Numbered from the stretch's first letter, positions 23,201 through 41,417 are shown. The stretch is DNA of 55,286 nucleotides from Candidatus Methylomirabilota bacterium (GCA_046726415.1 JBKPAK010000193.1:1-55286); one strand, 5' to 3'. The notes: generated by a model from the sequence alone, not told the origin. Program-made: numbers and translations.

Positions 23201-23710
23201 TCAGTGGCCGAGCGGCGCGCCGTTGAGCAGAGTGCGCGTGCTGACGGGGACCGGCTGCTGCAGCGCCTGCATCACGAAGCAGCCGCGCTCGGCGTTGCGG
23301 ACGACGCGGGCGACGAGGTCCGGCGGATCGGGCGAGTCGATCTCCAGGGTCGTCTCGGCGCCGAGCATCTGCCCCTGGATCGTGTCGTTCAGCACCGAGC
23401 CGTCCACGCGATAGCGCGCCGTCACCTTCATGCGCATCCCGTTCACCGTGACCTTCAGCATGTGCCCGTACCGGGACACCTGGGTCATCAGTCAGAACGC
23501 GAGCGCGGCGCTGAAGTACATCAGCGGCGTGGGCGCCGAGCCGAGGCCACCCAGGCTGGGGCCCTCGTCGGATGCGAACGTCATGTGGCCGGCGCCGCCG
23601 CGACTAACGGTGGCCAGCTTGAGGAACGGCGTGACGAGGCTGACGTCGGCCTCGAACACGATTTCGCGCGACTGGATCTTGGGGTCCAGCCCCTCGGGGA
23701 CGGTGCTCAT
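23201..23710 (-). CDS. OsmC-like selenoprotein (Sec73), 169 aa
   Basis: In-frame TGA 23492-23494 in SAPTPLMYFSAALAF-U-LMTQ; second Cys in AERGCFV; RBS; hairpin 23462-23479. Confidence 0.85.
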
Positions 23711-23732
23711 GCGACCTCCTTTCGTGCGAGGG

Positions 23733-24386
23733 TCACGACGCGCCCAGCCGGCGCAGGATCTCGACGGTGTGGGCCGGCTCCGAGCGCCGCGTGTAGTCGA
23801 CGTCGGCGTCGACGGCACGGACGACGCCGGCCCGGTCGATCACGAGCCGCGCGGGCACGGGCAGCCGCCAGGTGCCGTCGCCGTTGCCGCGGGCCAGGTC
23901 GATGCCCATCGCGAGGTAGATCGCACGCAGGTCTTCCGGCAGCGTGAAGGCCAGGCCGTAGGCCTCGGCCACCCGGTTGCCGAAGTCGTGGAGCACCTCG
24001 AACGGCAGCGGCTTGGGCTCCTCGGTCTCGCGGGGCGTGCGCGCCACCTGCGGCGAGACGACGGCCAGAGTGGCGCCGGTGGCCGCGATGTCGGGCAGGG
24101 CGTGGCGCAGAGCCTCCAGCTCTGCGTTACAGTACGGTCACCAGCGCCCGCGATAGAACGACAGCACGACCGGCCCCCGCGCTCGCAGGTCGGCCAGCCG
24201 CACCGGCACCTGGGCGGTGTTGGGCAGGGTGAAGTCGGGTGCCGGATGCCCCACCCGGACGATGCGGTCCATGATGCCGGACGCGCGCAGCTCGTCGGTG
24301 CTCCGCTCGATGACGGCCAGGCGCTCCGGGGGAATGCGGGCCTTGGCGGCCTCGCGCATGCGGTCCAGCGTATCCTGCAGGGCCAT
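23733..24386 (-). CDS. AhpC/TSA peroxiredoxin-like selenoprotein (UxxC, Sec83), 217 aa
   Basis: FYRGRW-U-PYCNAEL, TGA 24138-24140, frame continues; perfect hairpin 24106-24126. Confidence 0.92.
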
Positions 24387-24476
24387 CGCGTCCTCCTGGC
24401 GTGGGATGCCCCGTCGGGGGGCTGCCGACTTCGATGCCCCGGGCGGGCCGGGCGATTCGCACCCTACCACGTTTTC

Positions 24477-24492
24477 TTGACCGGTCGTTCAG
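24477..24492. promoter_or_regulatory. Probable TetR operator
   Basis: Imperfect palindrome TTGACCGGTCGTTCAG between divergent prx and tetR. Confidence 0.55.
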
Positions 24493-24511
24493 AAACTGAT
24501 ATTCGGATTGC

Positions 24512-25099
24512 GTGGGTCGCCCGCCCGAGTTCGAGCGTGACGTCGTCCTCGACCGCGCCATGCGCGCGTTCTGGTCGCGCGGCTACGAGGCCACGTCGAT
24601 CCAGCACCTGGTCGAGCGCACGGGGCTCCAGCGCGGCAGCCTCTACGGCGCCTTCGGCGACAAGCGGGGGCTGTTCTTCGCCGCCATGGAGCGCTACGAC
24701 CAGGTGGCGACCGCCCGGCTGCTGGCGGCCCTCGACGCGCCCGGATCCGGGCTGGCCGCCATCCGGCGGTTCTTCCGTCTGAAGGTGGCGGCGGCCCGCG
24801 AGCGCGGGCGGCCGCGCGGCTGCCTGGTCACCAACTCGGCCACCGAGCTTGGCGCCCGCGACGCGCCGAGCACGAGCCGCATCGGTGCGACGCTGTGCCG
24901 CATCGAGGCGGCCTTTCACCGCGCGATCTTGCGGGCCCAGGCGGCCGGCGAGATCGACCCGGCCCGCGACCCGAGGGCACTGGCCCGCTTCCTCACCAGC
25001 AGCGCCCAGGGGCTGTCGGTCATGGCCAAGGCCGCTCCCGACCTCGCGGCGCTCGACGACATCGTGAAGGTCACGCTGGAGGTCCTCACGCGCCGATGA
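24512..25099 (+). CDS. TetR/AcrR regulator (NemR-like, GCL motif)
   Basis: MGRPPEF..FWSRGYEATS..SLYGAFGDK..RGCLVTNSATE. Confidence 0.9.
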   Translation: MGRPPEFERDVVLDRAMRAFWSRGYEATSIQHLVERTGLQRGSLYGAFGDKRGLFFAAMERYDQVATARLLAALDAPGSGLAAIRRFFRLKVAAARERGRPRGCLVTNSATELGARDAPSTSRIGATLCRIEAAFHRAILRAQAAGEIDPARDPRALARFLTSSAQGLSVMAKAAPDLAALDDIVKVTLEVLTRR

Positions 25100-25770
25100 G
25101 CACCATCAGGGGGTTCGTCTTCGATGCCTATGGCACGCTGTTCGACGTGTTTTCCGTCACCGCGCTGTGCGAGCAGCGTTTTCCCGGCAAGGGCGCTGCC
25201 CTGGCCCAGCTGTGGCGGACCAAGCAGCTGCAATACAGCATGATGCGCAGCCTCATGGGCCGCTACCGCGACTTCTGGCGGCTCACCGAGGACGGGCTCG
25301 GCTACGCCTGCAAGGTCCTGGGGCTGACCTTGACCGACGACACCCGCGCGGCACTGCTGGAGGCTTACCTGCGCCTGGCCGCGTTCCCCGACGTGAAGCC
25401 GGGGCTCGAGGCCCTGCGGGCCCGTGGCCTGCGGCTGGGCATCCTCTCCAACGGCGAGCCGAAGATGCTGGAGGCGGCCGCGCAGCACGCGGGCATCCGG
25501 CCCCTGCTCGACCGCATCGTCAGCGTCGAGGAGGTGCAGGTCTTCAAGCCGAGCCCGCGCGTGTACGCGCTGGCGACCGAGCGGATGGGCGTGACCCGCG
25601 CGGAGCTCGGATTCGTGTCGTCGAACTCGTGGGACGTGGCCGGCGCCGCCTCGGCCGGTCTCAGAACGTTCTGGATCCAGCGCAGCGCGGTCGAGCCGCC
25701 CGAGGAGCTCGGCTTCGGCGCCGAGCACGTGGTGCACGCGCTCACCGACCTCCTTCCCCTCGTGCCATGA
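25096..25770 (+). CDS. Haloacid dehalogenase type II
   Basis: FDAYGTLFDV, WRTKQLQY, LSNG, FKPSPRVY, VSSNSWDVAGA. Confidence 0.9.
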   Translation: MSTIRGFVFDAYGTLFDVFSVTALCEQRFPGKGAALAQLWRTKQLQYSMMRSLMGRYRDFWRLTEDGLGYACKVLGLTLTDDTRAALLEAYLRLAAFPDVKPGLEALRARGLRLGILSNGEPKMLEAAAQHAGIRPLLDRIVSVEEVQVFKPSPRVYALATERMGVTRAELGFVSSNSWDVAGAASAGLRTFWIQRSAVEPPEELGFGAEHVVHALTDLLPLVP

Positions 25771-26573
25771 CCACGATTCGCATGGTCGACCCCGCCACGG
25801 TGACCGGAAAGGTCAAAGAGATCTTCGACGCGGTGCTGCGCCGCGAGCGGACGGTCTTCGGTGCGACCGCGATCTCCAACATCTGGCGCTGCATGGGCCA
25901 CTCGCCCGCGCTGGTGGAGGCCAACTGGGAGCGCTCGCGGGCCCTGATGCAGCGCGGCCACTTCACGCCGCTCCAGCGGGAGCTCATCGCGACCGCGGTC
26001 TCCATCGCCAACGCCTGTCACTACTGAATCGACTCGCACGTGGCCGCCGTGATGCGGCTGGGCGTGAGCGAGGTAGGAGTGACGGAGCTGATGGGCGTCA
26101 CCGAGCACGCGAGGGCACTGGCCACCACGGCGTCCGCGCTGCTCTTGGAGTCGCTCGACGGCGAGGGGAGCCTGATCCCGCCGCTCGGCCCCGGCACCAA
26201 GGACCCGGAGGTCGAGGCGCTGCTCGAAGAGGTGGCGGCGTGGGGCCAGACGGCGCTCGGACGCACGACGGTGCCGACGATCTGGAGGATCCTCGCCCAC
26301 AACGTCCACTACTTCCGCGCGACGTGGCGCAAGGAGACCAAGCTGATGGCCGGGGGCGAGCTGACGGGCCGCGACAAGCGCCGGGCGGCGCTGGGCGTGG
26401 CGATGGCGACGCGGGTGCGCTACATGGTCGAGTACCACACCGCGGTGCTCCGCCACGCCGGCGACACCGACGGTGATCTGCTGGAGATTCTCGGCGTCGT
26501 CGATCACTACACGACGCTCAACACGCTGTCGGAGGCCATGCAGATCGAGTCGGACATCCGCCCGTCACACTGA
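25767..26573 (+). CDS. Two-domain AhpD/CMD-like selenoprotein (CxxU, Sec87), 268 aa
   Basis: RELIATAVSIANACHY-U-IDSH, TGA 26025-26027, frame continues; hairpin 26033-26072. Confidence 0.88.
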
Positions 26574-26585
26574 AGGCGCGAAGGA

Positions 26586-27014
26586 GTGCCTGGCCGGGAT
26601 CGGGAAGTTCCCGAGCGCCGACGAGATGCCCAGCGCGGCCGGGGCGATGGTGGCCGGTTCCTCCTTCCGCGCCGTCAGGGTGAACGCGCCGAGCCCGAGT
26701 GGATGCGCCTTGCCCTCGATGCGCTAGCCCGGCGCCGGCCATCCCCGGGCCGGCGGTTCCTGCTCCGCGTACAAGAAGGTCGCCGCGAGGCTGTCCTGCA
26801 TGTGGCGGGTGGACGCGCGGGGACCACGGTGAGCCTCGAAGCGGCGCCCGCCGACGCCACACCTGTGCTCGATATCCCGACGCTGTTGGCGGTCGCGAGT
26901 GGGCGCCTGTCTCTGGCGCAGGCGGTGGAGAGCGGTCGCGTGAGAATGAGCGGTGACCGCCGAGCGCTCAAGGATTTCGGGCGATTGTTCGAGAACGGAC
27001 CCGGACCGCAATAG
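26586..27014 (+). CDS. SCP2 sterol-binding-like domain protein
   Basis: LAVASGRLSLAQAVESGRVRMSGD; N-terminus poorly defined. Confidence 0.5.
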   Translation: MPGRDREVPERRRDAQRGRGDGGRFLLPRRQGERAEPEWMRLALDALARRRPSPGRRFLLRVQEGRREAVLHVAGGRAGTTVSLEAAPADATPVLDIPTLLAVASGRLSLAQAVESGRVRMSGDRRALKDFGRLFENGPGPQ

Positions 27015-27218: not shown

Positions 27219-27235
27219 TTCACACGGTTGTAACA
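27219..27235 (+). promoter_or_regulatory. Repeated 17-bp motif, copy 3
   Basis: TTCACACGGTTGTAACA followed by CATACT (27260), upstream of the rSAM/GT operon. Confidence 0.55.
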
Positions 27236-27283: not shown

Positions 27284-27961
27284 GTGCGAGTCACTGTGGT
27301 GATCCCGGCATTGAACGAGGAAGCCGCCATTGGCGGTGTCGTCTGCGAGGTACCGCGTGATCTGGTCGATGAGATCATTGTCGTCGACAACGGCAGTACC
27401 GACCGCACCGCGGAGATAGCGGCTGCCGCCGGCGCCCGGGTGGTCCGCGAGCCGATCCGCGGCTACGGAGCCGCCTGCCGGGCCGGTGCATTGGCCGCAG
27501 GAGACACGGACATCCTCGTCTTTCTCGACGGTGACCGCAACGAGGATCCGGCCGAACTGCCCCGCGTGTTGGGTCCCGTGCTCGCGGGAAACGCCGACCT
27601 GGTCCTGGGATCGCGTGTGGGCGGCGCGGCGCGAGGCGCTCTCACGCTGCAACAACGGGTCGGCAACCGGGTCGTGACAGCGCTGGTGCGCCTACTGTAC
27701 GGGCTTCGGCTCACCGACATCGGCCCCTTCCGGGCGATTCCGGCACGCAGCCTTCGCGAACTCCGCATGGAGCACAAAACGTACGGGTGGCCCGTGGAAA
27801 TGGTCGTCAAGGCCGCGCGGCACGGCTACAGGATTGTCGAGGTGCCCGTGAGCTGTCGCCAGCGCCTGGGCCGCTCGAAAGTCGCTGGGACGTTCACGGG
27901 CAGTGTGCTCGCCGGTTACCATCTGCTGCTCACGACGGTGCGGTATGCGTGGAGGCGGTAA
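27284..27961 (+). CDS. Glycosyltransferase family 2 (DPM synthase-like)
   Basis: VVIPALNEE, VVDNGSTD, FLDGD, GPFRAI. Confidence 0.9.
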   Translation: MRVTVVIPALNEEAAIGGVVCEVPRDLVDEIIVVDNGSTDRTAEIAAAAGARVVREPIRGYGAACRAGALAAGDTDILVFLDGDRNEDPAELPRVLGPVLAGNADLVLGSRVGGAARGALTLQQRVGNRVVTALVRLLYGLRLTDIGPFRAIPARSLRELRMEHKTYGWPVEMVVKAARHGYRIVEVPVSCRQRLGRSKVAGTFTGSVLAGYHLLLTTVRYAWRR

Positions 27962-27965
27962 CGCC

Positions 27966-28958
27966 ATGGCCTTGTCCGTCGGGCTCGGGCTCACAAACGA
28001 ATGCAATCTCCGATGCCCGCACTGTTATCGGCCGGACAGGGTCGTGAAGCGGCTGGCACTTCGAGATGTGCAGCAGATCTGCGAGAGCATTCCCGTGCGC
28101 TCGATGAACCTCGGCGTGGGCGAGAACGGCCTCCACGGCGAGTACGCGCCGATTCTCGACTATCTATGGGGACGCGGGTTGAGGACCAGCATCACCTCCA
28201 ATGGCCTCAGCATCCAGACCCTCGACGACGTGTCGGTCAAGCGCTTCCACAGTGTCGAGTTCTCGCTGGATTTCCCGTCCGAGAGTGAACACGACGCGTT
28301 CCGGGGCGCCGGGAACTGGCGGACGGTCATCGGTGGACTCGAACGCTGCGTTGGGCTCGGGGTGCCGGTCACCGTGACCGCGGTCATGATGAGCATCAAC
28401 TACGACCGCCTGGCCGAGCTCGCGCGCCTGGCGGCAAGCTTCGCGGCTCACCTTCGCGTCAACATCTATCAGCCGGCGAAGACGGACCGCTTCACGCTGA
28501 CCTACGAGCACTTCTGGCGTGGCTTTCGGCTTCTTTCGGAGGCGACGCGCCTGGTTGCCACGACCGAGCCCGTGCTGGCTGCCGTGCTCGATTTGCCCGA
28601 CTTCGTGGGGCCGGGCTGCGGGCGCACTACCGTCCGGGTTGCGCCCGACGGCATGGTGATGCCGTGTACGTACTGGCCGGCGAGCCGCCTCCGGCTCGCG
28701 GATCTGACGCGGCTCGGCACGGCCATCGTCGAGACTGCCGAGTTTGTAGAGGCGCGGCGAGTCCCGGCTGCGTGCGTCGACTGTCCCTGTCGTGGCGGCT
28801 GCGCCGGCCGCCGCGCGCTGGCGGGAGGGCTCGATGCTCCGGATCCGTACTGTCCCTTCACGCGGGGAGAGCGGATCGTGCTCGAGTGGGAGCGCACGAA
28901 GCGGGAGGACCTTCCGAAAATGAGCAGCGCCTGCACCACCCTCGTCTCGGCTCGCTGA
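27966..28958 (+). CDS. Radical SAM/SPASM protein
   Basis: CNLRCPHC; C-terminal CG..PC..CVDCPCRGGC..DPYC. Confidence 0.88.
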   Translation: MALSVGLGLTNECNLRCPHCYRPDRVVKRLALRDVQQICESIPVRSMNLGVGENGLHGEYAPILDYLWGRGLRTSITSNGLSIQTLDDVSVKRFHSVEFSLDFPSESEHDAFRGAGNWRTVIGGLERCVGLGVPVTVTAVMMSINYDRLAELARLAASFAAHLRVNIYQPAKTDRFTLTYEHFWRGFRLLSEATRLVATTEPVLAAVLDLPDFVGPGCGRTTVRVAPDGMVMPCTYWPASRLRLADLTRLGTAIVETAEFVEARRVPAACVDCPCRGGCAGRRALAGGLDAPDPYCPFTRGERIVLEWERTKREDLPKMSSACTTLVSAR

Positions 28959-28969
28959 GCCGTCGGCCC

Positions 28970-29980
28970 ATGGCTGCTGCCCACCACCGCCCGCCCGTGG
29001 TCCCCTCGCTGCCGCGATCGCTCTACCTGGAGACGACCAATCGCTGCGACTCGAAGTGCCAGACGTGCATCCGGACGTTCCGGCGCCTCGAGCCGCCAGC
29101 CGACCTCACGCTGGCGCAGGTGAAGGCCATCACCGAGCAATTCCCGGTGCTGGAGCGAGTCGTCCTTCACGGCATCGGCGAGCCGTTGCTCAACCGCGAG
29201 ATCTTCGAGATCGTGATCTACCTCAAGTCCCGGGCGGCAACCGTCCTCTTCAACTCCGACGCGATCAGCCTCACGCAGGCGCGCGCGCTCAAGCTCACCG
29301 ACAGCGGTCTCGACGAGTACCGGGTCTCGATGGACGCGGCGACAGCCGAGACCTACCGGCGGATCCGCGGCGTCGACCAGTTCGATCGTGTGGTGACGAA
29401 CGTGCGGAGGCTCGTGGAACTCGAGCGGGAGCGGAGCCGGGAGGCGCCGCGTGTCTCGCTCTGGTTCACGGCGACCCGGGTCAACCTCCAGGAGCTACCG
29501 ACCTTCGTGCGACTGGCCGCCGGGGTGGGTGTCGCGGAGGTCTACGTGCAGCGGCTCGTTTTCAACGAGCTGGGAATGGCCACCGCTGACAACGCGCTGC
29601 ACGGGAGGCTGCGTGAGCAGGAGCAGGAACTGCTCGCGCGAACCGAGGAGCTGGCGCGCGCGCTCGGGCTCGTGCTCCACGCCTCGGGGCTGACGACACC
29701 GCTGGCGAGCCTCAGCGGGCAGGCCGCGGGCGCACGCCCCTGGGCGGGCTGCCAGCGGCCGTGGACCCTGAGCTACGTGACTGCCAACGGCAACGTCCTG
29801 CCGTGCTGCATCTCGCCGTGGGTGGCTCGTGACTATGAGGCCCTGGTGCTCGGCAACGCGTTCCGGCAACCGTTTGCCGAGATCTGGAACGGGGAGCGGT
29901 ATCGCCGATTTCGCACCGACTTCGAGAGCGAAAAGCCGCCCGACCCGTGTCGCGGCTGCGGGCTTCGGTGGAGCATTTGA
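28970..29980 (+). CDS. Radical SAM protein with SPASM/twitch domain
   Basis: CDSKCQTC, HGIGEPLL, CQRPW..LPCC..CRGC. Confidence 0.88.
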   Translation: MAAAHHRPPVVPSLPRSLYLETTNRCDSKCQTCIRTFRRLEPPADLTLAQVKAITEQFPVLERVVLHGIGEPLLNREIFEIVIYLKSRAATVLFNSDAISLTQARALKLTDSGLDEYRVSMDAATAETYRRIRGVDQFDRVVTNVRRLVELERERSREAPRVSLWFTATRVNLQELPTFVRLAAGVGVAEVYVQRLVFNELGMATADNALHGRLREQEQELLARTEELARALGLVLHASGLTTPLASLSGQAAGARPWAGCQRPWTLSYVTANGNVLPCCISPWVARDYEALVLGNAFRQPFAEIWNGERYRRFRTDFESEKPPDPCRGCGLRWSI

Positions 29981-29982
29981 CC

Positions 29983-30501
29983 ATGTCGCGCGACCGACTG
30001 GGCCTGGGCGTCCTCGTTCCCGGCTGGCCGCTCGCCGTCTTCCGGATCGCCTACGGCGTGCTCTTCCTCGACATGGCCCTGCAGAAGGCACCCTGGAACA
30101 ACTACGGGTGGCTGGAAGGCTTCATCCAGAAGGAGATCGCCAGCCCGGCGTTCGGCTGGTACGCCGCCTTCCTGCAGCACGTTGTGCTCCCGAACTTCTC
30201 GTTCTTCGCGCTGCAGACCTTCGCGATCGAGCTCGCGCTGGGTCTGGGGCTCCTGCTTGGGATCTTGACACGACTGGCCGGTCTCGCCGGCTTCCTCTGG
30301 CAGGTGAACATCGCGCTCGGGGCCTTCAACGTGCCAGGGGAGTGGTACTGGATCTGGCCGCTGCTCTCGCTCCCGCTCTTCTGCTTCGCGTTCGCCGGGG
30401 CCGGGCGCGTCCTCGGTGTCGATCGCGTGCTCGAGCCGGCCCTGCGCCGCCGGGCGGCCGCGGGTCAGGGGTGGGCGCGCGTCGTGCAGTACGCGGTGTG
30501 A
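29983..30501 (+). CDS. DoxX/TQO small-subunit-like membrane protein
   Basis: RIAYGVLFL..K, ELALGLGLLLGILTRLA, GRVLGVD. Confidence 0.75.
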   Translation: MSRDRLGLGVLVPGWPLAVFRIAYGVLFLDMALQKAPWNNYGWLEGFIQKEIASPAFGWYAAFLQHVVLPNFSFFALQTFAIELALGLGLLLGILTRLAGLAGFLWQVNIALGAFNVPGEWYWIWPLLSLPLFCFAFAGAGRVLGVDRVLEPALRRRAAAGQGWARVVQYAV

Positions 30502-30517
30502 CGGCGGAGCGGGCGGC

Positions 30518-31855
30518 TTGAGTGGGCGAGCCCTGGCGCGCTGGATCATCGGAATCCTCGGCGTCGCCAGCGCGCTCGGCTATGCCCTGGGCCTGCCGCG
30601 GTTCGTCGCCCACGCCACCCATCCGCATCTGGCCTACATCGCCCTCTTCGGTAGCCTGTTCCTCCTCTATCTGGTCGCCACGTCGCTCGCCTTCCGCGGC
30701 GACGACGACCGGGTGGTTCTCGGTCTGATCCTCGCGTTCGGCCTGCTCTTCCGGGTGAGCGTCCTCGTGAGTCCGGTCGTGCTCTCATCCGACGTCTACC
30801 GGTACCTGTGGGACGGTCGCGTGCAGCGAGCGGGCATCAGCCCGTACCGGTATCCGCCCTCGGCCCCCGAGCTCGCGGCGCTGCGTGACGAGACGATTTA
30901 CCCCAACATCAATCGGCCCACGAAACCGACGGTCTATCCACCAGGGTCTCAGGCCGCCTTCGCGCTGATGGCCCGGGTGGCGCCGGACAGTCTCCCAGCG
31001 TGGCGGGCGTTCATTCTCGCGACCGACGTGGTCACCGTCGCGCTCCTCCTCGTGCTGCTCCGGCGGGCGGGTGTGACGCCGACGGCGGCGATCGTCTACG
31101 CCTGGTCCCCGCTCGCCGTCTTCGAAGGGGCCCAGGCCGGTCATGCCGACCTGGTGATGATCCCCCTCGTGCTGGCGGCGCTCGCCTGGCGCCAGCAGGG
31201 CTCGTCCGTGCGCGCCGGCGTCGCGCTGGGCGGTGCCGTGCTGCTGAAGCTGTATCCGGTCGTGCTGCTGGCCGCCTGGTGGCGGCCGCGCGACTGGCGG
31301 TTCCCGACGGCCGTGGCCGCCACGGTCGCGCTGGGATATCTGCCGCACGCCGCCGACGTCGGCCTCGGCGCGCTCGGATTTCTTCCCGAGTACTTCGGCA
31401 GCGCGGAGGATCACAACATCGGCCTGCGGGCACTCGTGACGTACCCGCTCGGACTGAGCGGGGAGCTTGCGCGGGCCGTCGCCATGGCGCTGCTCTTCGG
31501 CGTGATGGCGGTCGCGCTCGTGGGAATCGGCCGGGCGAACGGCGGCGAGCCGGGCGGCATGATCAGGGCGGGCGCGCTGGCCGTCGCCACGTACCTGCTG
31601 CTGGTGCCGACCGGCATGCACCCGTGGTACGCGGTGTGGATCATCCCGTTCCTCTGCTTCCACCGCTGGCCGGCCTGGCTCTACTTCAGCGGCGGCGTGA
31701 CCCTCTCGTACATGAGCTATGTCGTCGAGCCGGCGCCGATCCCCTGGTGGGCATGGCTGGCCGAGTATGGCCCGCTCTATGCGCTGCTGCTGTGGGCTGG
31801 CTGGCGCGCGCTCCGGCAGCGCGTGCCCGTCGCCATCGCGCCGAGGACCACGTGA
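30518..31855 (+). CDS. GT-C membrane glycosyltransferase (GT87/DUF2029-like)
   Basis: SSDVYRYLWDG, VYPP, YAWSPL, GHAD, HPWY. Confidence 0.8.
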   Translation: MSGRALARWIIGILGVASALGYALGLPRFVAHATHPHLAYIALFGSLFLLYLVATSLAFRGDDDRVVLGLILAFGLLFRVSVLVSPVVLSSDVYRYLWDGRVQRAGISPYRYPPSAPELAALRDETIYPNINRPTKPTVYPPGSQAAFALMARVAPDSLPAWRAFILATDVVTVALLLVLLRRAGVTPTAAIVYAWSPLAVFEGAQAGHADLVMIPLVLAALAWRQQGSSVRAGVALGGAVLLKLYPVVLLAAWWRPRDWRFPTAVAATVALGYLPHAADVGLGALGFLPEYFGSAEDHNIGLRALVTYPLGLSGELARAVAMALLFGVMAVALVGIGRANGGEPGGMIRAGALAVATYLLLVPTGMHPWYAVWIIPFLCFHRWPAWLYFSGGVTLSYMSYVVEPAPIPWWAWLAEYGPLYALLLWAGWRALRQRVPVAIAPRTT

Positions 31856-34031: not shown

Positions 34032-34729
34032 AGGAGACATCCGACATGCGCATGCTCGTGGTCGGCTCACTGGCACTCTGGGTCATCGTGATCACACTGC
34101 CGCTGGCCGCCGACGCCGCGACGCTGATCACGGGCACGCTGCGGACCAAGGAGGGTCAGCCGCTCGCCGGCCTGGCGTTGCTCGAGAAGGGCGAGATCCA
34201 CAACAACCGCTGGGACCGCGGGGCGGTCGCCGATGCGAGCGGCCGCTTCCGCATCGAGCTGTCCGAGGGCGGTCAGTATGGGCTCCACGTCTACGCCAGC
34301 GGCTACATCTACAAGCCGAACCCCGTCAAGGTCGAGACCGGTAAGGCGCTGCAGATCGACGTCGTACTCGTGCCCGAGCCGACGCGCGCCAACGATCCGG
34401 TCATCAAGCGCGTCCAGTTCGTCGCCGCCACGCAGCCGAAGGGCAAAGCGGTCGTGAAGCTGGAGGTGAGCGACCCCAACGGCGACTTGGGGCCCCAGGT
34501 CATGGCGTTCAACGCGGCGACGGGGCAGGCGTTCGCGATGACGCCGCCCCGCTGGGTGTGGAGCCTCAAGTCCAACTATCCGAACGGCGTCTACCAGCTC
34601 GAGGTCGACAGCGCGAAGGCCCCGGGCGAGCCGCGCCACTGGCACTTCGTGGTGGCCGACCACCAGTGCAACACCACCGACGTCCTGAGCTTCCCGCATC
34701 AGCCGACACCACCGCAGGTCGTGAAGTAG
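34028..34729 (+). CDS. Secreted beta-sandwich (carboxypeptidase-regulatory-like) protein
   Basis: Signal peptide; ITGTLRTKEGQPLAG..DASGRFRI..YASGY. Confidence 0.6.
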   Translation: MKETSDMRMLVVGSLALWVIVITLPLAADAATLITGTLRTKEGQPLAGLALLEKGEIHNNRWDRGAVADASGRFRIELSEGGQYGLHVYASGYIYKPNPVKVETGKALQIDVVLVPEPTRANDPVIKRVQFVAATQPKGKAVVKLEVSDPNGDLGPQVMAFNAATGQAFAMTPPRWVWSLKSNYPNGVYQLEVDSAKAPGEPRHWHFVVADHQCNTTDVLSFPHQPTPPQVVK

Positions 34730-35397
34730 TGAAGATCGCCGCCGTCGCGATCATGGCCAAGGCGCCGCAGGCGGGAGAGGTCAAGACTCGGCTGTCTCCT
34801 CCCCTCTCGCGTGCGGACGCCGCGGAGCTCTACCGCCGCTTTCTTCTCGACAAGATCGAGCAGGTCGCGAAGCTGAAGGCGGCCAGCCTGGCGATCGCCT
34901 ACACGCCCGCCACAGCAAGGGCATTCTTCGAAGAGATGGCGCCGGGTTTCGTGCTCGTCGAGCAGCGGGGTGCCGGTCTAGGCGACCGGCTGGCGCACTG
35001 CCTGGGCGAACTCCTGAGCAGAGGCCATCAGGCCGCCATGGCTATCGATAGCGACACACCGACGCTGCCAGTCGGCTTCTTGCAGCAAGCGGTCGACCTC
35101 CTGACGAGGCCCGGGGTTGACGTGGTGCTGGGCCCCACCCGGGATGGCGGCTATTACCTGATCGGCCTCCGAGCCATGCACCGTGAGCTGTTCGAGGCGA
35201 TGGCATGGAGCACGAGCGCCGTCCTGGCGGAGACCATCCGGCGCGCCACCGCGAAGGGGCTCCAGGTCGGGTGCCTTCCGACCTGGTACGACATCGACAC
35301 CCCGGAGGATCTCGACCGGCTGCGCGCCGAGCTGGCGGCACCAGGCGACGGCGCTCCACGGCACACCCGCACATTCCTACTGGAGCGGACGGGATGA
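34729..35397 (+). CDS. DUF2064/TIGR04282-type transferase (rSAM/selenodomain-associated)
   Basis: MAKAPQAGEVKTRL, QRGAGLGDRL, SDTPTLP, LGPTRDGGYYLIG, DIDTPEDL. Confidence 0.88.
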   Translation: MKIAAVAIMAKAPQAGEVKTRLSPPLSRADAAELYRRFLLDKIEQVAKLKAASLAIAYTPATARAFFEEMAPGFVLVEQRGAGLGDRLAHCLGELLSRGHQAAMAIDSDTPTLPVGFLQQAVDLLTRPGVDVVLGPTRDGGYYLIGLRAMHRELFEAMAWSTSAVLAETIRRATAKGLQVGCLPTWYDIDTPEDLDRLRAELAAPGDGAPRHTRTFLLERTG

Positions 35398-35939
35398 AGC
35401 GCCTCTCAGAGACCCCCTGGAAGACGGTATCCACGCGACCCTTGTATCAGAATCCCTGGCTGTCCCTGCGTGAGGATCTCGTGGAGCTGCCCAATGGACG
35501 CACCACGATCTACGGCGTGGTGAGTTGCGGCGAGTGCGTGGGCGTTCTCCCATTCCTCGATCCCGATACCGTCCTCCTGGTCCGGCAGTACCGGTACGTG
35601 GCGCGCCGGGCGACCTGGGAGATGCCGACCGGCGGTGTCCATGTCGGAGAGTCGGTCGAGATGGCGGCCCAGCGCGAGCTTGCCGAGGAGACCGGTTTCC
35701 GTGCCGCGCGGCTGACTCATGTGAGCACCTATCACACCAGCAAGAGCATCATGGACGAGACGGCGCACTTGTTCCTGGGCGAGGAGCTGACGAAGCTTGC
35801 GCTCGCCCCGGACGAGACGGAATTCATCGAGGCCGTGCCCTTCTCGTTCCCGGAGACCTTGAGAATGGTGCGCACGGGAGAGATCGTGGACAGCATGACG
35901 ATCATCGCCGTCCTCCATGCTGCGCAGAGGACTCGCTGA
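35394..35939 (+). CDS. NUDIX hydrolase (ADP-ribose pyrophosphatase-like)
   Basis: LVRQYRY, GGVHVGESVEMAAQRELAEETG. Confidence 0.9.
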   Translation: MKRLSETPWKTVSTRPLYQNPWLSLREDLVELPNGRTTIYGVVSCGECVGVLPFLDPDTVLLVRQYRYVARRATWEMPTGGVHVGESVEMAAQRELAEETGFRAARLTHVSTYHTSKSIMDETAHLFLGEELTKLALAPDETEFIEAVPFSFPETLRMVRTGEIVDSMTIIAVLHAAQRTR

Positions 35940-35979
35940 CGGGCGGACCGACCTCCGTGGGACGGCACTGACGGCGACC

Positions 35980-36711
35980 ATGGGAGCCGTGCGCGAGCAC
36001 TACGACGCGGTGCTCTCCCAGTACTACTCACGCATGTTCGGCGAGTTCGAGGCCAAGGTCGCCGAACAGCAAGCGTTGCTCGAGCGTGTCGGTATCACCC
36101 TCCGGCCGAATGGCGGTCTGGCGGTGGATCTCGGCTGCGGCTCGGGGTTTCAGTCCATCGCGCTGGCGCGCCTCGGATTCCGGGTGCTGGCGATCGACTT
36201 CAGTCCTCGGCTCCTGGCCGAGCTGAGTGAGCGAGCGCACGGCCTGCCGATCACGCCGCTTGAGGGCGATATTCGCGACATCGGCACGCTCGGACCGACG
36301 GGAGTCGAGCTCGTGGTGTGCATGGGCGATACGCTGTCGCACCTCGATCACGAAGGCGACCTCGATCGGGTGTTCACGGGCGTCGGGACTCGCCTCGCCA
36401 TCGGAGGCCGATTCGTCCTCACGTTCCGCGATCTCAGCGGACCGTTGCACGATCTCGACCGCTTCATCCCGCTCTGCAGCTCCGATGATCTGATCATGAC
36501 CTGCTTCCTCGAGTATGAACCCAGCCATGTGAGGGTTCACGATCTCATCTGGATGCGCCAGTCCGACGGATGGCACTTCCGCAAGGGTGTGTACAGCAAG
36601 CTGCGGCTCGCGCCTGACGCCGTTGTCCGGCGACTCGAGAAGGCCGCGTTCACGGTCGAGCGTCATGCGGCATCGGTTGGCATGGTGACACTCGTCGGCA
36701 CCCGTCGGTGA
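35980..36711 (+). CDS. Class I SAM methyltransferase
   Basis: VDLGCGSG, CMGDTLSH. Confidence 0.85.
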   Translation: MGAVREHYDAVLSQYYSRMFGEFEAKVAEQQALLERVGITLRPNGGLAVDLGCGSGFQSIALARLGFRVLAIDFSPRLLAELSERAHGLPITPLEGDIRDIGTLGPTGVELVVCMGDTLSHLDHEGDLDRVFTGVGTRLAIGGRFVLTFRDLSGPLHDLDRFIPLCSSDDLIMTCFLEYEPSHVRVHDLIWMRQSDGWHFRKGVYSKLRLAPDAVVRRLEKAAFTVERHAASVGMVTLVGTRR

Positions 36712-36727
36712 GCCGTGCTCCTGGCCG

Positions 36728-37432
36728 ATGGGCATCAGGAGCGTTCGTCTCCTCGCCGCTGCGGCCCTCGCCGCAACGGTCTGTCTCGATCCAGCGCTCG
36801 CGGTCGATGCCGATCGCTTCCCGAAGCCCGACCGGCCGGTGGCCAGTGTCGTCTCGCCCAGGTACTCGAGCGAAGAGGTTCGTGACCGCCACGGAGAAGC
36901 CGAGCGAGTCCTGAACCGGCTAGGCATCCGCGAGGGCATGCGAGTCGCCGACATTGGAGCGGGCGACGGCTACTACACGATGCGGCTCGCTCGCCGGCTG
37001 GGCGAGGCGGCGACGATCTACGCCGAAGACATCCAGCGCGAGTACCTGGAGCGACTGGAGGGTCGATTGCGACGTGAGGGAATGTCGTACGTCCACATCA
37101 TCCGAGGCGAGCCGCGGGATCCCAGGCTGCCACCAGGCGCGGTCGATGTCGCGATCCTCGCGCACATGTACCACGAGATCGAAAACCCTTACGAATTCCT
37201 TTACCGCCTCTGGGGTTCGCTCGCCGCGGGGTCTCGCGTCGCGGTGGTCGATGTGGACAGGCGCACCGAGAAGCACGGGACGCCGCCGCCGTTACTGCGG
37301 TGCGAGATGGCGGCGGTCGGTTTCCGCCAGGTGGACTTCATTCGCCTCGCGCCCGCCGACGGCTATCTCGCGGTCTTCGTGCCCCCCGACGCGCTCCCGG
37401 CCATCGCGACGATCAAGCCCTGCCGGCAGTGA
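36728..37432 (+). CDS. Exported class I SAM methyltransferase
   Basis: Signal peptide, VADIGAGDGYY, MYHEIENP. Confidence 0.82.
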   Translation: MGIRSVRLLAAAALAATVCLDPALAVDADRFPKPDRPVASVVSPRYSSEEVRDRHGEAERVLNRLGIREGMRVADIGAGDGYYTMRLARRLGEAATIYAEDIQREYLERLEGRLRREGMSYVHIIRGEPRDPRLPPGAVDVAILAHMYHEIENPYEFLYRLWGSLAAGSRVAVVDVDRRTEKHGTPPPLLRCEMAAVGFRQVDFIRLAPADGYLAVFVPPDALPAIATIKPCRQ

Positions 37433-37795
37433 GACGGCCGATGGAACCAGAACGCGGCGATTCCCTGACTCGTCGTCGCCTCGACATCGCCGACGCATGC
37501 CGGTCGACCTCGGCGGTCAGCGGCGAACTTCAGGTGCTCCCGAAGTTCCATCGGTAGGTCTTCATCCCACATTCCGTGTTGCCGCGTTGACCACGGGGCA
37601 TCCGCGAACACGACTTCTCCGCCTGGATGAGCTCGGCAGCGGGCGTGGCACCGCCGGCCTCTGGCCGAAGAGCTGCACGAGCTGATAGTCCTCGCGCGCC
37701 GCGCGATCGCCGCACGCGAGCAACAGCAGCCGACCTCGTCAGCGATCGACGTGCGCGCCGCTGAGGAGCGCGCGTCCCGAGACGGGAGCCGGATT

Positions 37796-38326
37796 CTGCA
37801 GTACAGCGTCTGGCGCAGCCTGATGGGCCGTCACCGCGATTTCTGGCGGCTCGCCGAGGACGGGCTCGTCCACGCCTGCAAGAGCCTGGGGCTCGCGCTG
37901 ACCTCCGAGGCCCGTCCCCGGCTGCTCGAGACCCTGACGCCTTTCCCGACGTGAAGCCGGGCCGCCAAGCGTTGAAGGCGCTGGGCTTCCGGCTCGCCAT
38001 CCTCTCCAACCGCGAGCCCACCAGGCTGGAGGCGGCCGCGCGCAGCGCCGGCATCCTGCCGCTCCTCGACCACGTCGTCAGCGTCGAGGAAGTCAAGATC
38101 TTCCAGCCGAGCCGCGCGTCTACAACCTGGCGCCGGAGCGACTGGCCGTGAGCAACGCAGAGCTGGGGTTCGTGTCGTCGAACGCCGCCGGCGCCGGCGC
38201 GGCTTCGGCGGGCCTGCGTACCTTCTGGATCCAGCGCAGCGCGGCCGAGCCGTCAGAGGAGCTCGGCTTCGGGGCGGAGCAGGTCGTGCACGCGCTCACC
38301 GACCTGGTACCCTCGTGCACCGCTGA
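37796..38326 (+). pseudogene. Degenerate second copy of haloacid dehalogenase
   Basis: Collinear with 25228-25765 but 5'-truncated and frameshifted. Confidence 0.8.
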
Positions 38327-38376
38327 CGCCGCGGCGTCGCCTCCGGATGGGGGCCAGATCCGCGCCCCCATCCCAA

Positions 38377-38820
38377 TCAGCGCGTGGCGCGCTCGACGAG
38401 CCGCTCAAGCCCTTGACGCACCGGCTCGAGCGCGGCGGCGGGGACGTCGTGACGGGCGGCCAGGTACGCCGGCGCGTTGTAGGTCAGCCAGACCTGTCCG
38501 CGCTCGTCCTCCCACGCCAGCGCCTTCAGCGGCAGGTCGATGCCGAACGTCTGTCGGGCCTGCATGAGCGGCGTGCCGGCTTTCGGATTGGCGAAGAGCA
38601 GCAGGGCGGTCGGGCGAAGCGTCTGGCCGGCCTTGGCCGCATTGGCACCGTGATCGATGCGCGCGGCGATCACGGCGCCGGCGTCGCGCGCGGCCTGCTC
38701 GAGGCGGTCCAGCGTCTCGGCGACGCTGTGCGCGCTGCGCACGGTGACGAGCCCGGTGTCGGCCAGCGCGTCCGGGGCCGTGACCAGGAGCATGACGACG
38801 AGCCCGAGAGCAATCCGCAT
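38377..38820 (-). CDS. DUF302 protein
   Basis: Signal peptide, ARIDHGANA, FANPKAGTPLMQ, DLPLKAL. Confidence 0.88.
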   Translation of the reverse strand: MRIALGLVVMLLVTAPDALADTGLVTVRSAHSVAETLDRLEQAARDAGAVIAARIDHGANAAKAGQTLRPTALLLFANPKAGTPLMQARQTFGIDLPLKALAWEDERGQVWLTYNAPAYLAARHDVPAAALEPVRQGLERLVERATR

Positions 38821-38869
38821 GACAGCCTCCCTCCGCGCCACGGATTCACGCGGCTCTCGACCGTGGTGA

Positions 38870-39583
38870 CTAGATCGTGGTGGTGAGCTCGAGCAGCCAG
38901 CCGGGCATGTGGTCCACCAGCCAGGCCTCGACGACCTTGTCGACGCCGGTGAGCACGACAGCGCCGACGAGCAGCAGCAACACCCCCAGCGTCGGCTTGC
39001 CGAGCGCGGCCAGTCCAGTCAGCGGGACGCCGCGGCGGAGCGCGGCGTGGCGGGAGCCGTACGCCAGGACCAGAATCGGCGCGACCGCGCCGAGGCTGAA
39101 CATCAGCATGACCGCCGCCGCGCGGCACAGGTCCTCGCTCTGCGCCGCCAGCGCGATCGCGGCCGCCAGCGTCGGGCCCGTGCACGGCGTCCAGACCGCG
39201 CCGAGCAGCGCGCCGAGCACGACCTGGCCGCCGAGGCCGCCCGGCCGCCGCGCGATCAGGGCGCCCGCCCCTCTCGCGAGCGGCGCCGCGAGGCGCGCCG
39301 CCAGGTCCTGGAGCCTCGGCACCAGCAGGACGGCACCGGCGAGCGCCATTATCGCCGCGGCCAGGCCGCGGGCGACGTCACGCTCGAGGCCGAGCGTGAA
39401 GCCGAGCGAGGCGAAGAACAGGCCCGTGGCCGTCGACGAGGCCACGAGCCCGGCTGCGAGCGCGAGCGGACCAGAGCGTCGCTCCTGCAGCGCGCTGGCG
39501 ACGACGATCGGCAGCAGCGGCAGCACACACGGCGACAGCACCGAGAGGTTGCCCGCCGCGAAGCTCAGGACCACCGCACCCAC
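38870..39583 (-). CDS. CcdA/DsbD-type transmembrane electron transporter
   Basis: LSPCVLPLLP and WTPCTGPTL. Confidence 0.88.
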   Translation of the reverse strand: MGAVVLSFAAGNLSVLSPCVLPLLPIVVASALQERRSGPLALAAGLVASSTATGLFFASLGFTLGLERDVARGLAAAIMALAGAVLLVPRLQDLAARLAAPLARGAGALIARRPGGLGGQVVLGALLGAVWTPCTGPTLAAAIALAAQSEDLCRAAAVMLMFSLGAVAPILVLAYGSRHAALRRGVPLTGLAALGKPTLGVLLLLVGAVVLTGVDKVVEAWLVDHMPGWLLELTTTI

Positions 39584-39595
39584 GAGCCAGGTACC

Positions 39596-39988
39596 CTAAA
39601 GGGCCGCCTCGAAGAGCTTCTGGATGTCTGCGGGGTCGGTGACAGCGGTCGAGCGCATCGCCTCCGTCTTGCCCTTGAAGGCCAGCAGCGTGCTCTGCTG
39701 GCTCACCTTCCAGCGCCTGAGCAGCTCCTTGCTCGAATCGAAGTCGACCTGGTACACGGCGACCTTCGCGAAGCGCGGATCGTTCGAGAGCCTGTCCACG
39801 ACAGGCTTCTGCTGCTTGCAGACCGGTCACCAGGGCGCGTGGACGAACACGACGATGCCGCGGCCAGCGTCCTGGGCCTCCGCGAAGGCCTTGGCGTCGA
39901 AGGGCGCAACCGCTGCTGGGGCCAGCCCCGGCGCGACGACCCCGACGACGAGCGCGACCGCGACGAGCGCGAGGATACGGTGGCGCAT
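39596..39988 (-). CDS. Exported thioredoxin-family selenoprotein (UxxC, Sec54), 130 aa
   Basis: Signal peptide, VHAPW-U-PVCKQQ, TGA 39827-39829; perfect hairpin 39789-39807; RBS. Confidence 0.92.
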
Positions 39989-40057
39989 CGGTTCCCTCCT
40001 GGCCCCGCCCGGTCCGGCGGGCGGCCACGGACATTGTGCCCGCCCGGTGCCCGCGTG

Positions 40058-40074
40058 TGTCACAACGCTGTGAA
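40058..40074 (-). promoter_or_regulatory. Repeated 17-bp motif, copy 4
   Basis: TTCACAGCGTTGTGACA on minus, 70 bp upstream of the thioredoxin ATG. Confidence 0.6.
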
Positions 40075-40098
40075 CACTCACCTGACCGAGGAGAACGT

Positions 40099-40880
40099 AT
40101 GACGACGATCCGCATGGTCGACCCTGCCGCGGTGACCGGAAGGGTCCGGGAGATCTTCGACGCCGCGCTGCGCCGCGAGCGGACGGTCTTCGGCGCGACC
40201 GAGATCTCCAACATCTGGCGCTGCATGGGCCATTCCGCCGACCTGCTCGAGGCGAACTGGAACCGGTCACGTGCCCTGATGCAACGTGGCGACTTCACGC
40301 CGCTGCAGCGGGAGCTCATCGCGACGGCCGTGTCCATCGCGAACGCCTGAATCGACTCCCACGTGGCCGCCGCGGCTGGGTGTGGACGAGGTCGGCGTGA
40401 CGGAGCTGTCACCGAGCACGCCCGCTCCCTGGCCACCGTCGCCGCGGCCCTGCTCCTCGAGTCGCTCGACGGCGAGACGAGCCTGATCGGCCCGGCCGAG
40501 GGGCCTGGCGATCCCGAGGTCGCGGCTATCCTCGAGGACATCGCGGCGTGGGCCCGAGCCGCGCTGGGCCAGTCAGCGGTGCCGATCCTGTGGCGGATCC
40601 TCTCCCGCAACGCGCACTATCTCGGGGCCACCTGGCGCAAGGAGGTGGCGCTCATGCGCGACGGCGCGCTGCCGGCCCGTGACAAGCGTCGGGTCGCGCT
40701 CGCCGTGGCGATGGCCACGCGCGGCCGCTACATGATCGAGTACTACACGCGGGCGCTCCGTCAGGCGGCGACACCGACCGCGATCTCCTCGAGATTCTCG
40801 GAGTCGTCGACCACTACACGACGCTGAACACGCTCTCCGAAGCGATGCAGATCGAGTCGGACATCCGCGCGCAGGCCTGA
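40099..40880 (+). pseudogene. Degenerate second copy of the AhpD/CMD selenoprotein
   Basis: TGA retained at 40348-40350, CHY codons deleted, further 5-, 7- and 1-bp deletions relative to 25767-26573. Confidence 0.8.
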
Positions 40881-40907
40881 CGCTGCTGCGGCCAGGCTCG
40901 AGCGTTG

Positions 40908-41417
40908 CTAGGTGGCTGCGGTGTCCGCGTCCTCCCGGACCTCGATCGTGCGCCCGTCGACGCGCAGCGTGGCGTCCCAGGTGATCGTGATGGCGTCCTT
41001 TACGCTCTGGTGCGCGGGACACCCGTGGACGTGAACGGCCAGCGCCCGCTCGGTCGCCTCCCTGGCGTCGGGTGGAACGGCCACGTCATAGTGGACGTGG
41101 ATCGACGTGATGCGGATCGTCTTGCCGATGCCCGAAATGCGGCCCTCGACGGTCGCGACGTAGCTGTCGCGGTCGAACGGGATCTTGCGCCCTGCCAGGG
41201 CGCCACGCAGGGTGCCGTACATTCAGCCGGCGACGGCGGCGACGATGTGGTCGAGGGTGGACGCGATCGGCGGCCCTTCCTTGGCGCCGTAGTACTCGCG
41301 GAGCTTGCCCTGCACGCCGTAGGTCACCGGCTCCGGAACGTCGCCCAGGAAAGCGCGGCGGTAGCCGTCGCGAAACTCCAGGCGTGCACGCGAGACGTAC
41401 TCGAAGTCCTCAGCCAT
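40908..41417 (-). CDS. OsmC-like selenoprotein (Sec65), 169 aa
   Basis: STLDHIVAAVAG-U-MYGTL, TGA 41223-41225; second Cys in HVHGCPAHQS; hairpin 41187-41203. Confidence 0.87.

Follow-up and report, generated by a model that had tools for sequence, protein, structure and literature searches.

We analyzed a stretch of 55,286 nt (hereafter the window), which is the whole of contig C193 (GCA_046726415.1, JBKPAK010000193.1) of a Candidatus Methylomirabilota bacterium, and concentrated on five genes between positions 23,201 and 41,417 that are each interrupted by a TGA codon. The source genome (G000) amounts to 7.6 Mb in 352 contigs with a GC content of ~70%, an estimated completeness of 98%, and a contamination of 4.66%; its closest named relatives are metagenome-assembled genomes (MAGs) of the Methylomirabilota/Rokubacteria, a soil lineage. 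An initial inspection without database searches (the sequence-only reading) had interpreted the TGAs as selenocysteine (Sec, U) codons of a hidden redox system on a mobile island. Translation with read-through of TGA recovered all five genes as single frames with one in-frame TGA each (Table 1). They encode two OsmC-like proteins (OsmC1 and OsmC2), a peroxiredoxin-like protein (Prx), an AhpD-like protein (AhpD1), and a thioredoxin-like protein (Trx). A sixth feature, taken for a decayed copy, indeed proved to be one, since AhpD2 carries indels and frameshifts.

Table 1. Features of the locus on contig C193. U denotes the residue encoded by the in-frame TGA; selenoprotein and bacterial Sec insertion sequence (bSECIS) assignments are predictions.
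Feature	Position	Strand	Remarks
OsmC1, OsmC-related selenoprotein, 169 aa	23201..23710	-	TGA 23494-23492, U73, U-L-M-T; second Cys C143; terminal stop TGA 23203-23201
OsmC1 hairpin core, 6 bp, 12 nt after TGA	23462..23479	-	longer fold ~23445-23491
Prx-like thiol oxidoreductase selenoprotein, 217 aa	23733..24386	-	TGA 24140-24138, U83, W-U-P-Y-C
Prx bSECIS hairpin, 9-bp stem, GGA loop, 11 nt after TGA	24106..24126	-	
TetR-family regulator	24512..25099	+	Pfam TetR_N, TetR_C_13; first gene of TetR-HAD-AhpD1-SCP2 run
HAD (haloacid dehalogenase-type) hydrolase, HAD1	25096..25770	+	Pfam Hydrolase 96.1 bits
AhpD1, two-domain AhpD/CMD-like selenoprotein, 268 aa	25767..26573	+	TGA 26025-26027, U87, C-H-Y-U
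AhpD1 bSECIS hairpin	26029..26071	+	apical stem 26041-26060, loop CGUGAU
Small SCP2-like protein, ends TetR-HAD-AhpD1-SCP2 run	26586..27014	+	weak Pfam SCP2 and Alkyl_sulf_C matches, E 6e-5 to 9e-5
HAD2 pseudogene, decayed HAD1 copy	~37796..38312	+	
DUF302 protein, ends Trx-CcdA-DUF302 run	38377..38841	-	Pfam DUF302 71.3 bits
CcdA/DsbD-type membrane thiol-disulfide electron transporter	38870..39583	-	Pfam DsbD_TM
Trx-like selenoprotein, 130 aa, hydrophobic N-terminal signal-like segment	39596..39988	-	TGA 39829-39827, U54, W-U-P-V-C
Trx bSECIS hairpin, 8-bp stem, GUG loop, 19 nt after TGA	39789..39807	-	
AhpD2 pseudogene, decayed AhpD1 copy	40099..40911	+	TGA kept, 40348-40350
OsmC2, OsmC-like selenoprotein, apparent second subfamily, 169 aa	40908..41417	-	TGA 41225-41223, U65, U-M-Y-G-T; second Cys in H-G-C-P
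OsmC2 hairpin, consensus of 10 orthologues, GGC loop, 19-21 nt after TGA	41187..41203	-	
Two-domain glyoxalase-fold gene, upstream of OsmC2, same strand	41491-42495	-	
Tyrosine integrase	9411-10790	-	only recombinase on contig

In all five intact genes a Pfam domain match runs across the TGA, and the codon-usage score is positive on either side of it. OsmC1 passed the NCBIfam model NF041052 ("OsmC-related (seleno)protein") with 163.7 bits (cut-off 95). OsmC2, which shares 20% identity with OsmC1, did not pass this model (20.7 bits) and was recognized by Pfam OsmC (42.1 bits, cut-off 27.5, residues 55-147). The Prx-like protein matched AhpC-TSA (PF00578; 94.1 bits against a cut-off of 26, residues 45-191) and remained under every NCBIfam cut-off, the best score being 34.4 bits against 140. 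For AhpD1, the CMD domain (PF02627) was found in two stretches (75.6 bits, cut-off 23), and the score on TIGR01926 (62 bits) did not reach the cut-off of 81.8. The Trx-like protein gave 42 bits with the Pfam Thioredoxin domain (PF00085; cut-off 23.5, residues 33-124) and 45 bits with TIGR01068; since the latter lies below the cut-off of 96.8, it is not a canonical thioredoxin.

Alignments with homologues and PDB entries place the TGA at the redox cysteine of the family in all four families (OsmC twice, Prx, AhpD, and Trx), as had been proposed. At residue 83 of Prx, 97 aligned Prx-type matches from 100 fetched loci were compared: 69 have Cys, 15 have TGA, and the other 13 are distant peroxiredoxin classes with a Cys two to three residues further along. 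Close homologues outside the phylum read W-C-P-Y-C. Within the order (41 genomes, that is, the source genome and 40 relatives), TGA was found at all of the 15 best-matching places that cover residue 83, at identities of 46-100%. The source genome itself holds the Prx-OsmC1 pair three times (C193, C156, and C257), with 75% identity for Prx and 90-92% for OsmC, and TGA is present in all of these genes. U73 and C143 of OsmC1 align with both cysteines of PDB entry 3cje, and the four OsmC1 matches in the fetched loci, one of which is the gene of the window itself, all carry TGA. The C-H-Y-U motif of AhpD1 aligns with C-S-Y-C of PDB entry 2ouw; its nine homologous loci all have a TGA-encoded C-x-Y-U. 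Rows from one genome (G011) enter only the lists and tallies for Prx, the OsmC1 hairpin, the fetched loci, and OsmC2, and no claim depends on them.

Orthologues of Trx were found at eight places in eight of the 41 genomes, five with TGA and three with Cys (TGT or TGC). The nucleophile is Sec in the source genome, G029, G002, and G015, and Cys in G012, G019, and G001; the fifth TGA place (G040) bears a TAG as well and was set aside. OsmC2 has TGA at 25 of 27 places in the order, and the other two matches stop short of residue 65. Nine longer database homologues of OsmC2 were also aligned, five of which cover the site with two Cys, one Ser, and two Trp; the Trp calls may reflect a TGA rendered as W by the gene caller. 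A PDB sequence search with OsmC2 gave no match at E 0.01. The sequence-only reading had expected Cys or U at the TGA in homologues and had named Trp or other non-Cys residues as evidence to the contrary. Its expectation held for Prx, AhpD1, OsmC1, and Trx, and OsmC2 gave the mixed picture just described.

A stem-loop shortly 3' of the UGA with a G in the apical loop is the pattern sought by bSECISearch for bSECIS elements. We found such a hairpin, with a G in its loop, 11-19 nt 3' of each of the five TGAs, in agreement with the sequence-only reading. Its frequency by shape was determined at 4000 control positions, counting contiguous pairs with at most one G-U, a G-first loop of 3-8 nt, and the right distance. 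Hairpins of at least six pairs occurred at 10.8% of these positions, of at least seven at 3.0%, and of at least eight at 0.95%. The contiguous stems of the window comprise nine pairs in Prx, eight in Trx, seven in OsmC2, and six in OsmC1. The AhpD1 hairpin escaped this strict rule due to two G-U pairs in its stem, and it is the strongest fold of the set (RNAfold, -24.6 kcal/mol). Relative to 1500 coding-region stretches of the same genome, the folding energies of the five 47-nt stretches fall at the 1.7% (AhpD1), 12%, 17%, 24%, and 26% quantiles. By shape the hairpins are beyond chance; by energy alone this is not clear. An Rfam scan of the window at the gathering threshold returned no SECIS family, its sole match being a fluoride riboswitch.

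The strongest kind of hairpin evidence is comparative. Among 14 Prx sequences, 89.7% of the cells of the helix are paired and three pairs are altered on both sides; the covariation score was matched by none of 500 shuffles, and controls slid along the alignment were 26-52% paired. In AhpD1, alignment columns 19-35 are invariant among 10 sequences with 43-82% protein identity to AhpD1, including synonymous sites and third codon positions. Pair 27/35 of the apical helix of OsmC2 is C-G in six and G-C in four of 10 sequences. The Trx hairpin folds in all four Sec forms (minimum free energy [MFE] -15.4 to -20.8, z -1.85 to -3.19), which include one compensatory pair (G-C to A-U), and is absent in all three Cys forms (MFE -7.2 to -12.6, z +0.34 to +1.43). 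For OsmC1, the hairpin sequence is near-identical in the copies on C156, C257, and L109, so that covariation is without information here because the copies vary too little.

No sel gene lies in the window, as had been stated before, and the five genes would depend on Sec machinery encoded elsewhere. A search of the genome recovered the complete set above the respective cut-offs: selA (591.9 bits), selB (374.2 bits), selD (335.6 bits), and selC, the gene for tRNA-Sec (71 bits). The genes selA and selB are located side by side on C313, with tRNA-Sec (anticodon tca) close by. On C223, selD itself contains one in-frame TGA, with Sec in the motif S-C-A-G-U-A-S-K. TGA is also the commonest stop codon of the genome (433 of 706 confident long open reading frames [ORFs]) and terminates OsmC1, Prx, and AhpD1 themselves. 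Since TGA is the commonest stop and the Sec machinery is present, we regard the in-frame TGAs as a case of Sec recoding and not of a change in the genetic code.

Further Sec genes were sought by a genome-wide codon-usage search for in-frame TGAs flanked on either side by coding signal, followed by an NCBIfam scan of the 39 candidates outside the window. For 33 of these, the NCBIfam match spans the TGA. Adding the five genes of the window, selD, an OsmC gene on C257, and a Prx-like gene on C146 (the last two found by tblastn) yields at least 41 Sec genes; this number is a floor, since a candidate entered the scan only if its TGA had strong coding signal on either side or a Cys in its vicinity. 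The supported candidates include six UGSC proteins, six AhpD/YciW-related proteins, GrdA, two GrdB, a PrdB-like protein, OsmC_like_Se, two rhodanese-related proteins, an ArsC-family protein, a PDO-type thioredoxin, and many Prx- or ResA-like proteins. A candidate on C131 had been discarded before the family scan because of a stop just upstream. The UGSC family (seleno)protein matches with TGA are found on C120, C200, C54, C80, C8, and C142, four above the cut-off (135-159 bits), one at 121 against 125 bits, and one weak (63.7 bits); two UGSC proteins (L154 and L167) are fused to C-terminal extensions of ~350-450 aa. The Sec-containing GrdB-family (two), GrdA, and PrdB-like genes are located on C172 (11218-13953), C21 (5606-6946 and 8889-10304), and C78 (1108-2115). 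Based on these genes, two of which share one contig, the genome has a glycine/sarcosine/betaine-type reductase system.

A second concentration of Sec genes was found on C156 (42031-62666), with four supported or candidate Sec genes at 42.7-62.3 kb. It contains a VKOR protein with a fused Trx-like domain carrying W-U-P-A-C (the match is short of the TGA), Prx-OsmC1 paralogues with their own TetR, and a TlpA/ResA-like protein with W-U-P-H-C. Three supported or candidate Sec genes are located on C120. Five Sec genes in 18 kb are therefore a local concentration and no exception, C156 and C120 being similar.

The genes around the TGA-containing frames fall into recurring arrangements. The end of Prx is separated by 22 nt from the start of OsmC1, and both genes probably form one operon. 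TetR diverges from this pair across a 125-nt spacer (24387-24511), in which inspection by eye revealed no clear TetR operator palindrome. On the other side, the start of HAD1 overlaps the stop of TetR, and the stop of HAD1 overlaps the start of AhpD1, so that all genes of the TetR-HAD-AhpD1-SCP2 run overlap or nearly touch. The arrangement of OsmC1, Prx, TetR, HAD, and AhpD1, including their orientation, is matched in a named Methylomirabilota MAG (L116) at 76-89% identity, and the order TetR-HAD-AhpD1 is kept in both L116 and L117. The divergent Prx/TetR pair recurs in L116, G016, G001, and on C156; the genes 3' of TetR vary. C156 repeats TetR, Prx, and OsmC1, with paralogues of the glycosyltransferase family 2 (GT2) and radical-SAM genes nearby. 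Prx, AhpD, and OsmC1 are located together in G015, Prx is accompanied by TetR and an OsmC2-like gene in G016, and the CcdA-Trx pair adjoins Prx in G002. CcdA is found next to the Trx orthologue in G002 (three overlapping loci), G015, G012, G019, and G001; this adjacency was not seen at the G029 locus L175. OsmC2 is the last gene of a same-strand run encoding a short-chain dehydrogenase/reductase, an MIP channel (aquaporin), a GMC oxidoreductase, and the glyoxalase-fold protein.

The nearest named AhpD loci belong to MAGs titled Candidatus Methylomirabilota or Rokuibacteriota and to two contigs of one MAG labelled Candidatus Limnocylindria. DUF302 adjoins the AhpD1 homologues in L118-L120. The latter two (L119 and L120) are the Limnocylindria loci, whose AhpD1 homologues contain TGA and, with 73-74% identity, are as close as those from Methylomirabilota. 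Such closeness suggests wrongly binned or labelled contigs or, alternatively, gene transfer from one phylum to another.

The second AhpD copy shows what real decay looks like in this region. AhpD2 retains 74-89% DNA identity to AhpD1 and has kept the TGA. It lacks the 9 nt for C-H-Y, its hairpin loop has become 5 nt shorter, and losses of 7, 3, and 1 nt elsewhere leave two stretches frame-shifted. Its neighbor HAD2 (79-85% DNA identity to HAD1) has deletions of 10, 1, and 3 nt, is spread over three frames, and has an N-terminal part that could not be aligned. A 1.8-kb block with DUF302, CcdA, and Trx sits between the dead HAD2 and AhpD2 halves.

Of the explanations that compete with chromosomal, vertically inherited Sec genes, the one that survives best is that the 18-kb stretch is a mobile island carrying a Sec antioxidant kit, acquired as a unit and using the Sec machinery of the host. 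The tyrosine integrase and an addiction-module fragment on the same contig speak in its favor. So does the density of Sec genes, since five in 18.2 kb compare with ~0.1 expected from at least 41 in 7.6 Mb. The local duplication and the inserted Trx-CcdA-DUF302 block demonstrate that the region has been rearranged, and gene order varies among relatives. However, the integrase is 12.4 kb away from OsmC1, its nearest Sec gene. In the five relatives in which synteny was checked around the integrase and along the left half of the window, only the integrase stretch (~9.1-15.4 kb) was without synteny, and the genes at 15.9-22.8 kb are conserved. The GC content is flat along the whole contig (0.65-0.73), the contig lacks tRNA genes, and no repeats bound the region.

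Moreover, synteny of the Sec genes and their neighbors extends to further genera and families of the order. In G029, which belongs to another family, contig C101 has Prx followed by a run colinear with 27.9-37.4 kb of the window (glycosyltransferases, two radical-SAM proteins, a cytochrome c, DUF2064, NUDIX, and a methyltransferase). Contig C4 of the same genome has both flanks, with a sigma-54 activator, an extracytoplasmic function sigma factor, GH63, a glyoxalase, and the Trx orthologue. No Sec gene was matched in 72,556 plasmid records, a search that did not extend to the phage collection; HAD, TetR, CcdA, and DUF302 alone gave distant partial matches, covering at most 18% of the query, and the plasmid HAD homologues are annotated as "haloacid dehalogenase type II". 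Sec clusters also recur elsewhere in the genome (C156 and C120), where at least 33 Sec genes lie outside the window. We consequently consider a mobile island very unlikely, and this part of the sequence-only reading is abandoned. The strain-specific segment at ~9100-15400, which is possibly a small integrated element, contains the integrase, two ORFs without Pfam match, a Na/H exchanger, an NTPase, and the addiction-module antitoxin fragment, and no Sec gene.

A second explanation holds that the TGAs are true stops, caused by nonsense mutations, pseudogene formation, or assembly errors, which would leave dead or two-fragment genes. Two observations fit it: the AhpD2 and HAD2 copies are genuinely decayed, and public gene callers take the TGAs as stops. 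Yet many genomes, and the paralogues within the source genome itself, retain TGA at this very codon even where identity has fallen to 45-50%. Coding signal and Pfam domains continue past it, and the hairpins, which persist through compensatory changes, are missing precisely in those genes that have Cys instead of Sec. The real pseudogene differs by showing indels and frameshifts. True stops are thus extremely unlikely, and the proposal of Sec codons with in-frame SECIS elements in four redox families, instead of five independent nonsense mutations, is borne out by the conserved TGAs and hairpins and by the Cys counterparts. Reassignment of TGA to Trp or Gly, for which the W in two OsmC2 database homologues could be quoted, has a probability close to nil, given that TGA is the usual stop even for three of the genes concerned, that the in-frame TGAs align with Cys and not with Trp or Gly, and that a complete Sec machinery with the tca anticodon is encoded.

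Several points weigh against Sec genes in the window or temper how far this interpretation carries. Only OsmC1 passes the cut-off of a selenoprotein-specific NCBIfam model; the scores of OsmC2, Prx, AhpD1, and Trx are too low for any of them. Trp (two) and Ser (one) occur at the Sec position among the longer OsmC2 homologues. In this GC-rich genome, folding energy alone fails to separate the five hairpins from the coding background (quantiles 0.017-0.26). Six of the 39 candidates elsewhere in the genome are unsupported, five without a match and one with a match short of the TGA. With 352 contigs and 4.66% contamination, some of the apparent paralogues could come from a co-binned relative. The insertion of selenium at the five UGAs is itself predicted from sequence, and TetR control, substrates, and export of Trx are deduced from gene order and the reading of an N-terminus. 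Taken together, we hold it to be highly probable that the window contains five functional selenoprotein genes of known thiol-redox families, located in chromosomal, vertically inherited operons of a Sec-rich lineage.

If these are Sec genes, each UGA would be read by SelB with Sec-tRNA(Sec), recruited by the hairpin within the coding sequence 11-19 nt 3' of the codon, according to the established bacterial mechanism. Sec would then replace the nucleophilic Cys of the redox center and attack the substrate. A conserved Cys would be its partner: in U-x-x-C the C, in C-x-x-U the first C, and in the OsmC fold the distal Cys. Two modules can be proposed. In module A, TetR would be located between the divergent units Prx-OsmC1 and TetR-HAD-AhpD1-SCP2, with the operator and the promoters of both expected in the spacer at 24387-24511. 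Judged from gene order, which suggests both TetR control and the substrates, module A is most likely an inducible unit for defence against peroxides or organic hydroperoxides/electrophiles. Module B, placed inside the decayed HAD-AhpD duplicate, would combine an exported Trx-like selenoprotein with CcdA as electron conduit and the DUF302 protein. The hydrophobic N-terminus of Trx ends Ala-rich and was predicted by eye to be a signal peptide. From its gene order, module B looks like a periplasm-directed reducing pathway.

OsmC2 appears to represent a second Sec subfamily with the OsmC fold. A database search returned 2,363 homologues with E values of 1e-5 or lower, and 111 of the best 120 are fragments of at most 106 residues. 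All eight fragments that were fetched start with M-Y-G-T-L, that is, with the codon after the TGA; one of them is annotated by NCBI as a "hypothetical protein" and comes from a Rokuibacteriota MAG. From these observations a wider proposal can be made, to which we attach somewhat more doubt than confidence. It combines three elements: a large OsmC2 Sec subfamily that lies under the curated cut-off and is halved in gene calls, a modular Sec regulon centered on TetR, and AhpD2 as a snapshot of the birth and death of a Sec gene. The regulon, put forward with the same reserve as part of this proposal, would have TetR as the fixed partner of Prx, with OsmC1, HAD-AhpD, or OsmC2-like genes as interchangeable and inducible cassettes.

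The remainder of the window contains several other features. Between both Sec modules, a plus-strand run (27284-37432) encodes a GT2 protein, two radical-SAM proteins (one SPASM), DoxX, GT87, and a further GT2 protein, as well as a SoxA/TsdA-type cytochrome c, CarboxypepD_reg, DUF2064, NUDIX, and two methyltransferases. It is colinear with G029:C101 and partly with G016:C249. The fluoride riboswitch is located at 1792-1860 on the plus strand (Rfam RF01734, 50.3 bits) and is followed up to ~5259 by genes for a Pup-like small protein, a Na/H exchanger, Usp, CrcB, and DUF190, a typical fluoride-response set. Near the end of the contig (51980-53620, plus strand), an enzyme of the MbnB/TglH/ChrH family (323.6 bits), which modifies ribosomally synthesized and post-translationally modified peptides, marks a possible peptide natural-product locus.

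The locus is a concrete and conserved example of several Sec thiol peroxidase/reductase genes around one regulator. What it adds is modest: the layout of Sec operons centered on TetR, a pair of Sec pseudogenes, and the apparent OsmC2-type subfamily. Standard gene callers split or truncate all five genes, and it is in this sense only that the earlier description of the system as hidden is fair. Because callers split Sec genes, public data understate how much redox capacity this soil lineage has. The Sec and Cys orthologues of Trx, with and without hairpin, represent a natural experiment that could serve as a test system for bacterial SECIS elements, and the dead HAD-AhpD duplicate shows true decay of a Sec gene beside live ones.

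All four families have been known as selenoprotein families since 2005. The available part of the Sargasso Sea study lists Prx-like (UxxC), Trx (UxxC), AhpD-like (CxxU), and OsmC-like (UxxT) selenoproteins (PMC1088965), and the accessible text of a later survey describes a Global Ocean Sampling (GOS) read on which Prx-like 1 and AhpD-like 2 Sec genes are adjacent (PMC2398784). A 2026 review, in the sections available, treats OsmC-like (UxxT), AhpD-like, and CMD-like (CxxU) selenoproteins as known and mentions operon clustering of Prx-like and AhpD-like Sec genes (PMC13188914). According to the same sections, 63 predicted selenoprotein genes in a Methylomirabilota MAG are the new upper bound, the earlier record being 57 (PMC13188914); the top organisms of BSepDB have 57-63 Sec genes, as far as the available text states (PMC13326102). 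By the record titles of its closest AhpD loci, the source genome with its at least 41 Sec genes belongs to the same phylum as this MAG (Deng et al., as cited in the available part of PMC13188914). A literature search for Rokubacteria together with selenoprotein gave nothing on point, the primary groundwater-MAG study being outside the literature covered. The general picture of selenium use remains unchanged, because the families are known and the lineage has already been reviewed as rich in selenoproteins.

With the marine Prx-like UxxC proteins (Zhang, Gladyshev et al., 2005, 2008), the Prx of the window shares the AhpC/TSA fold in which U-x-x-C replaces T-x-x-U (available part of PMC1088965). 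In contrast, its gene here forms a pair with that of an OsmC-like selenoprotein and is divergent from TetR, a layout not found in the accessible sections of that paper (PMC1088965). AhpD1 has in common with the AhpD-like/CMD C-x-x-U proteins the CMD domain and Sec at the second position of C-x-x-C (Table 3 in the accessible part of PMC1088965), but is a 268-aa two-domain form translationally coupled to a HAD hydrolase. OsmC1 is a member of the group defined by NF041052 and the Sargasso OsmC-like UxxT proteins, whereas OsmC2 with its U-M-Y-G-T motif stands apart.

CcdA/DsbD proteins together with exported thioredoxin-like proteins form reducing pathways of the ResA, TlpA, or CcmG type. The window resembles them in having a Trx-fold protein with a signal-like N-terminus beside DsbD_TM/CcdA, an arrangement kept in five relatives. 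It differs in the Sec nucleophile of Trx and in the DUF302 gene at the end of the run, and the Pfam scan of the window revealed no genes for cytochrome c maturation beside Trx-CcdA. Finally, the locus can be compared with multi-selenoprotein operons such as the SAO system, the Tso operon, and the GOS Prx-like/AhpD-like pair, in which, as described in the available parts of both sources, Sec genes are co-located, implying a shared redox process (PMC13188914, PMC2398784). The window shares this co-location of Sec genes, but distributes them over three transcription units and a pseudogene pair, the order of which is shuffled among relatives.

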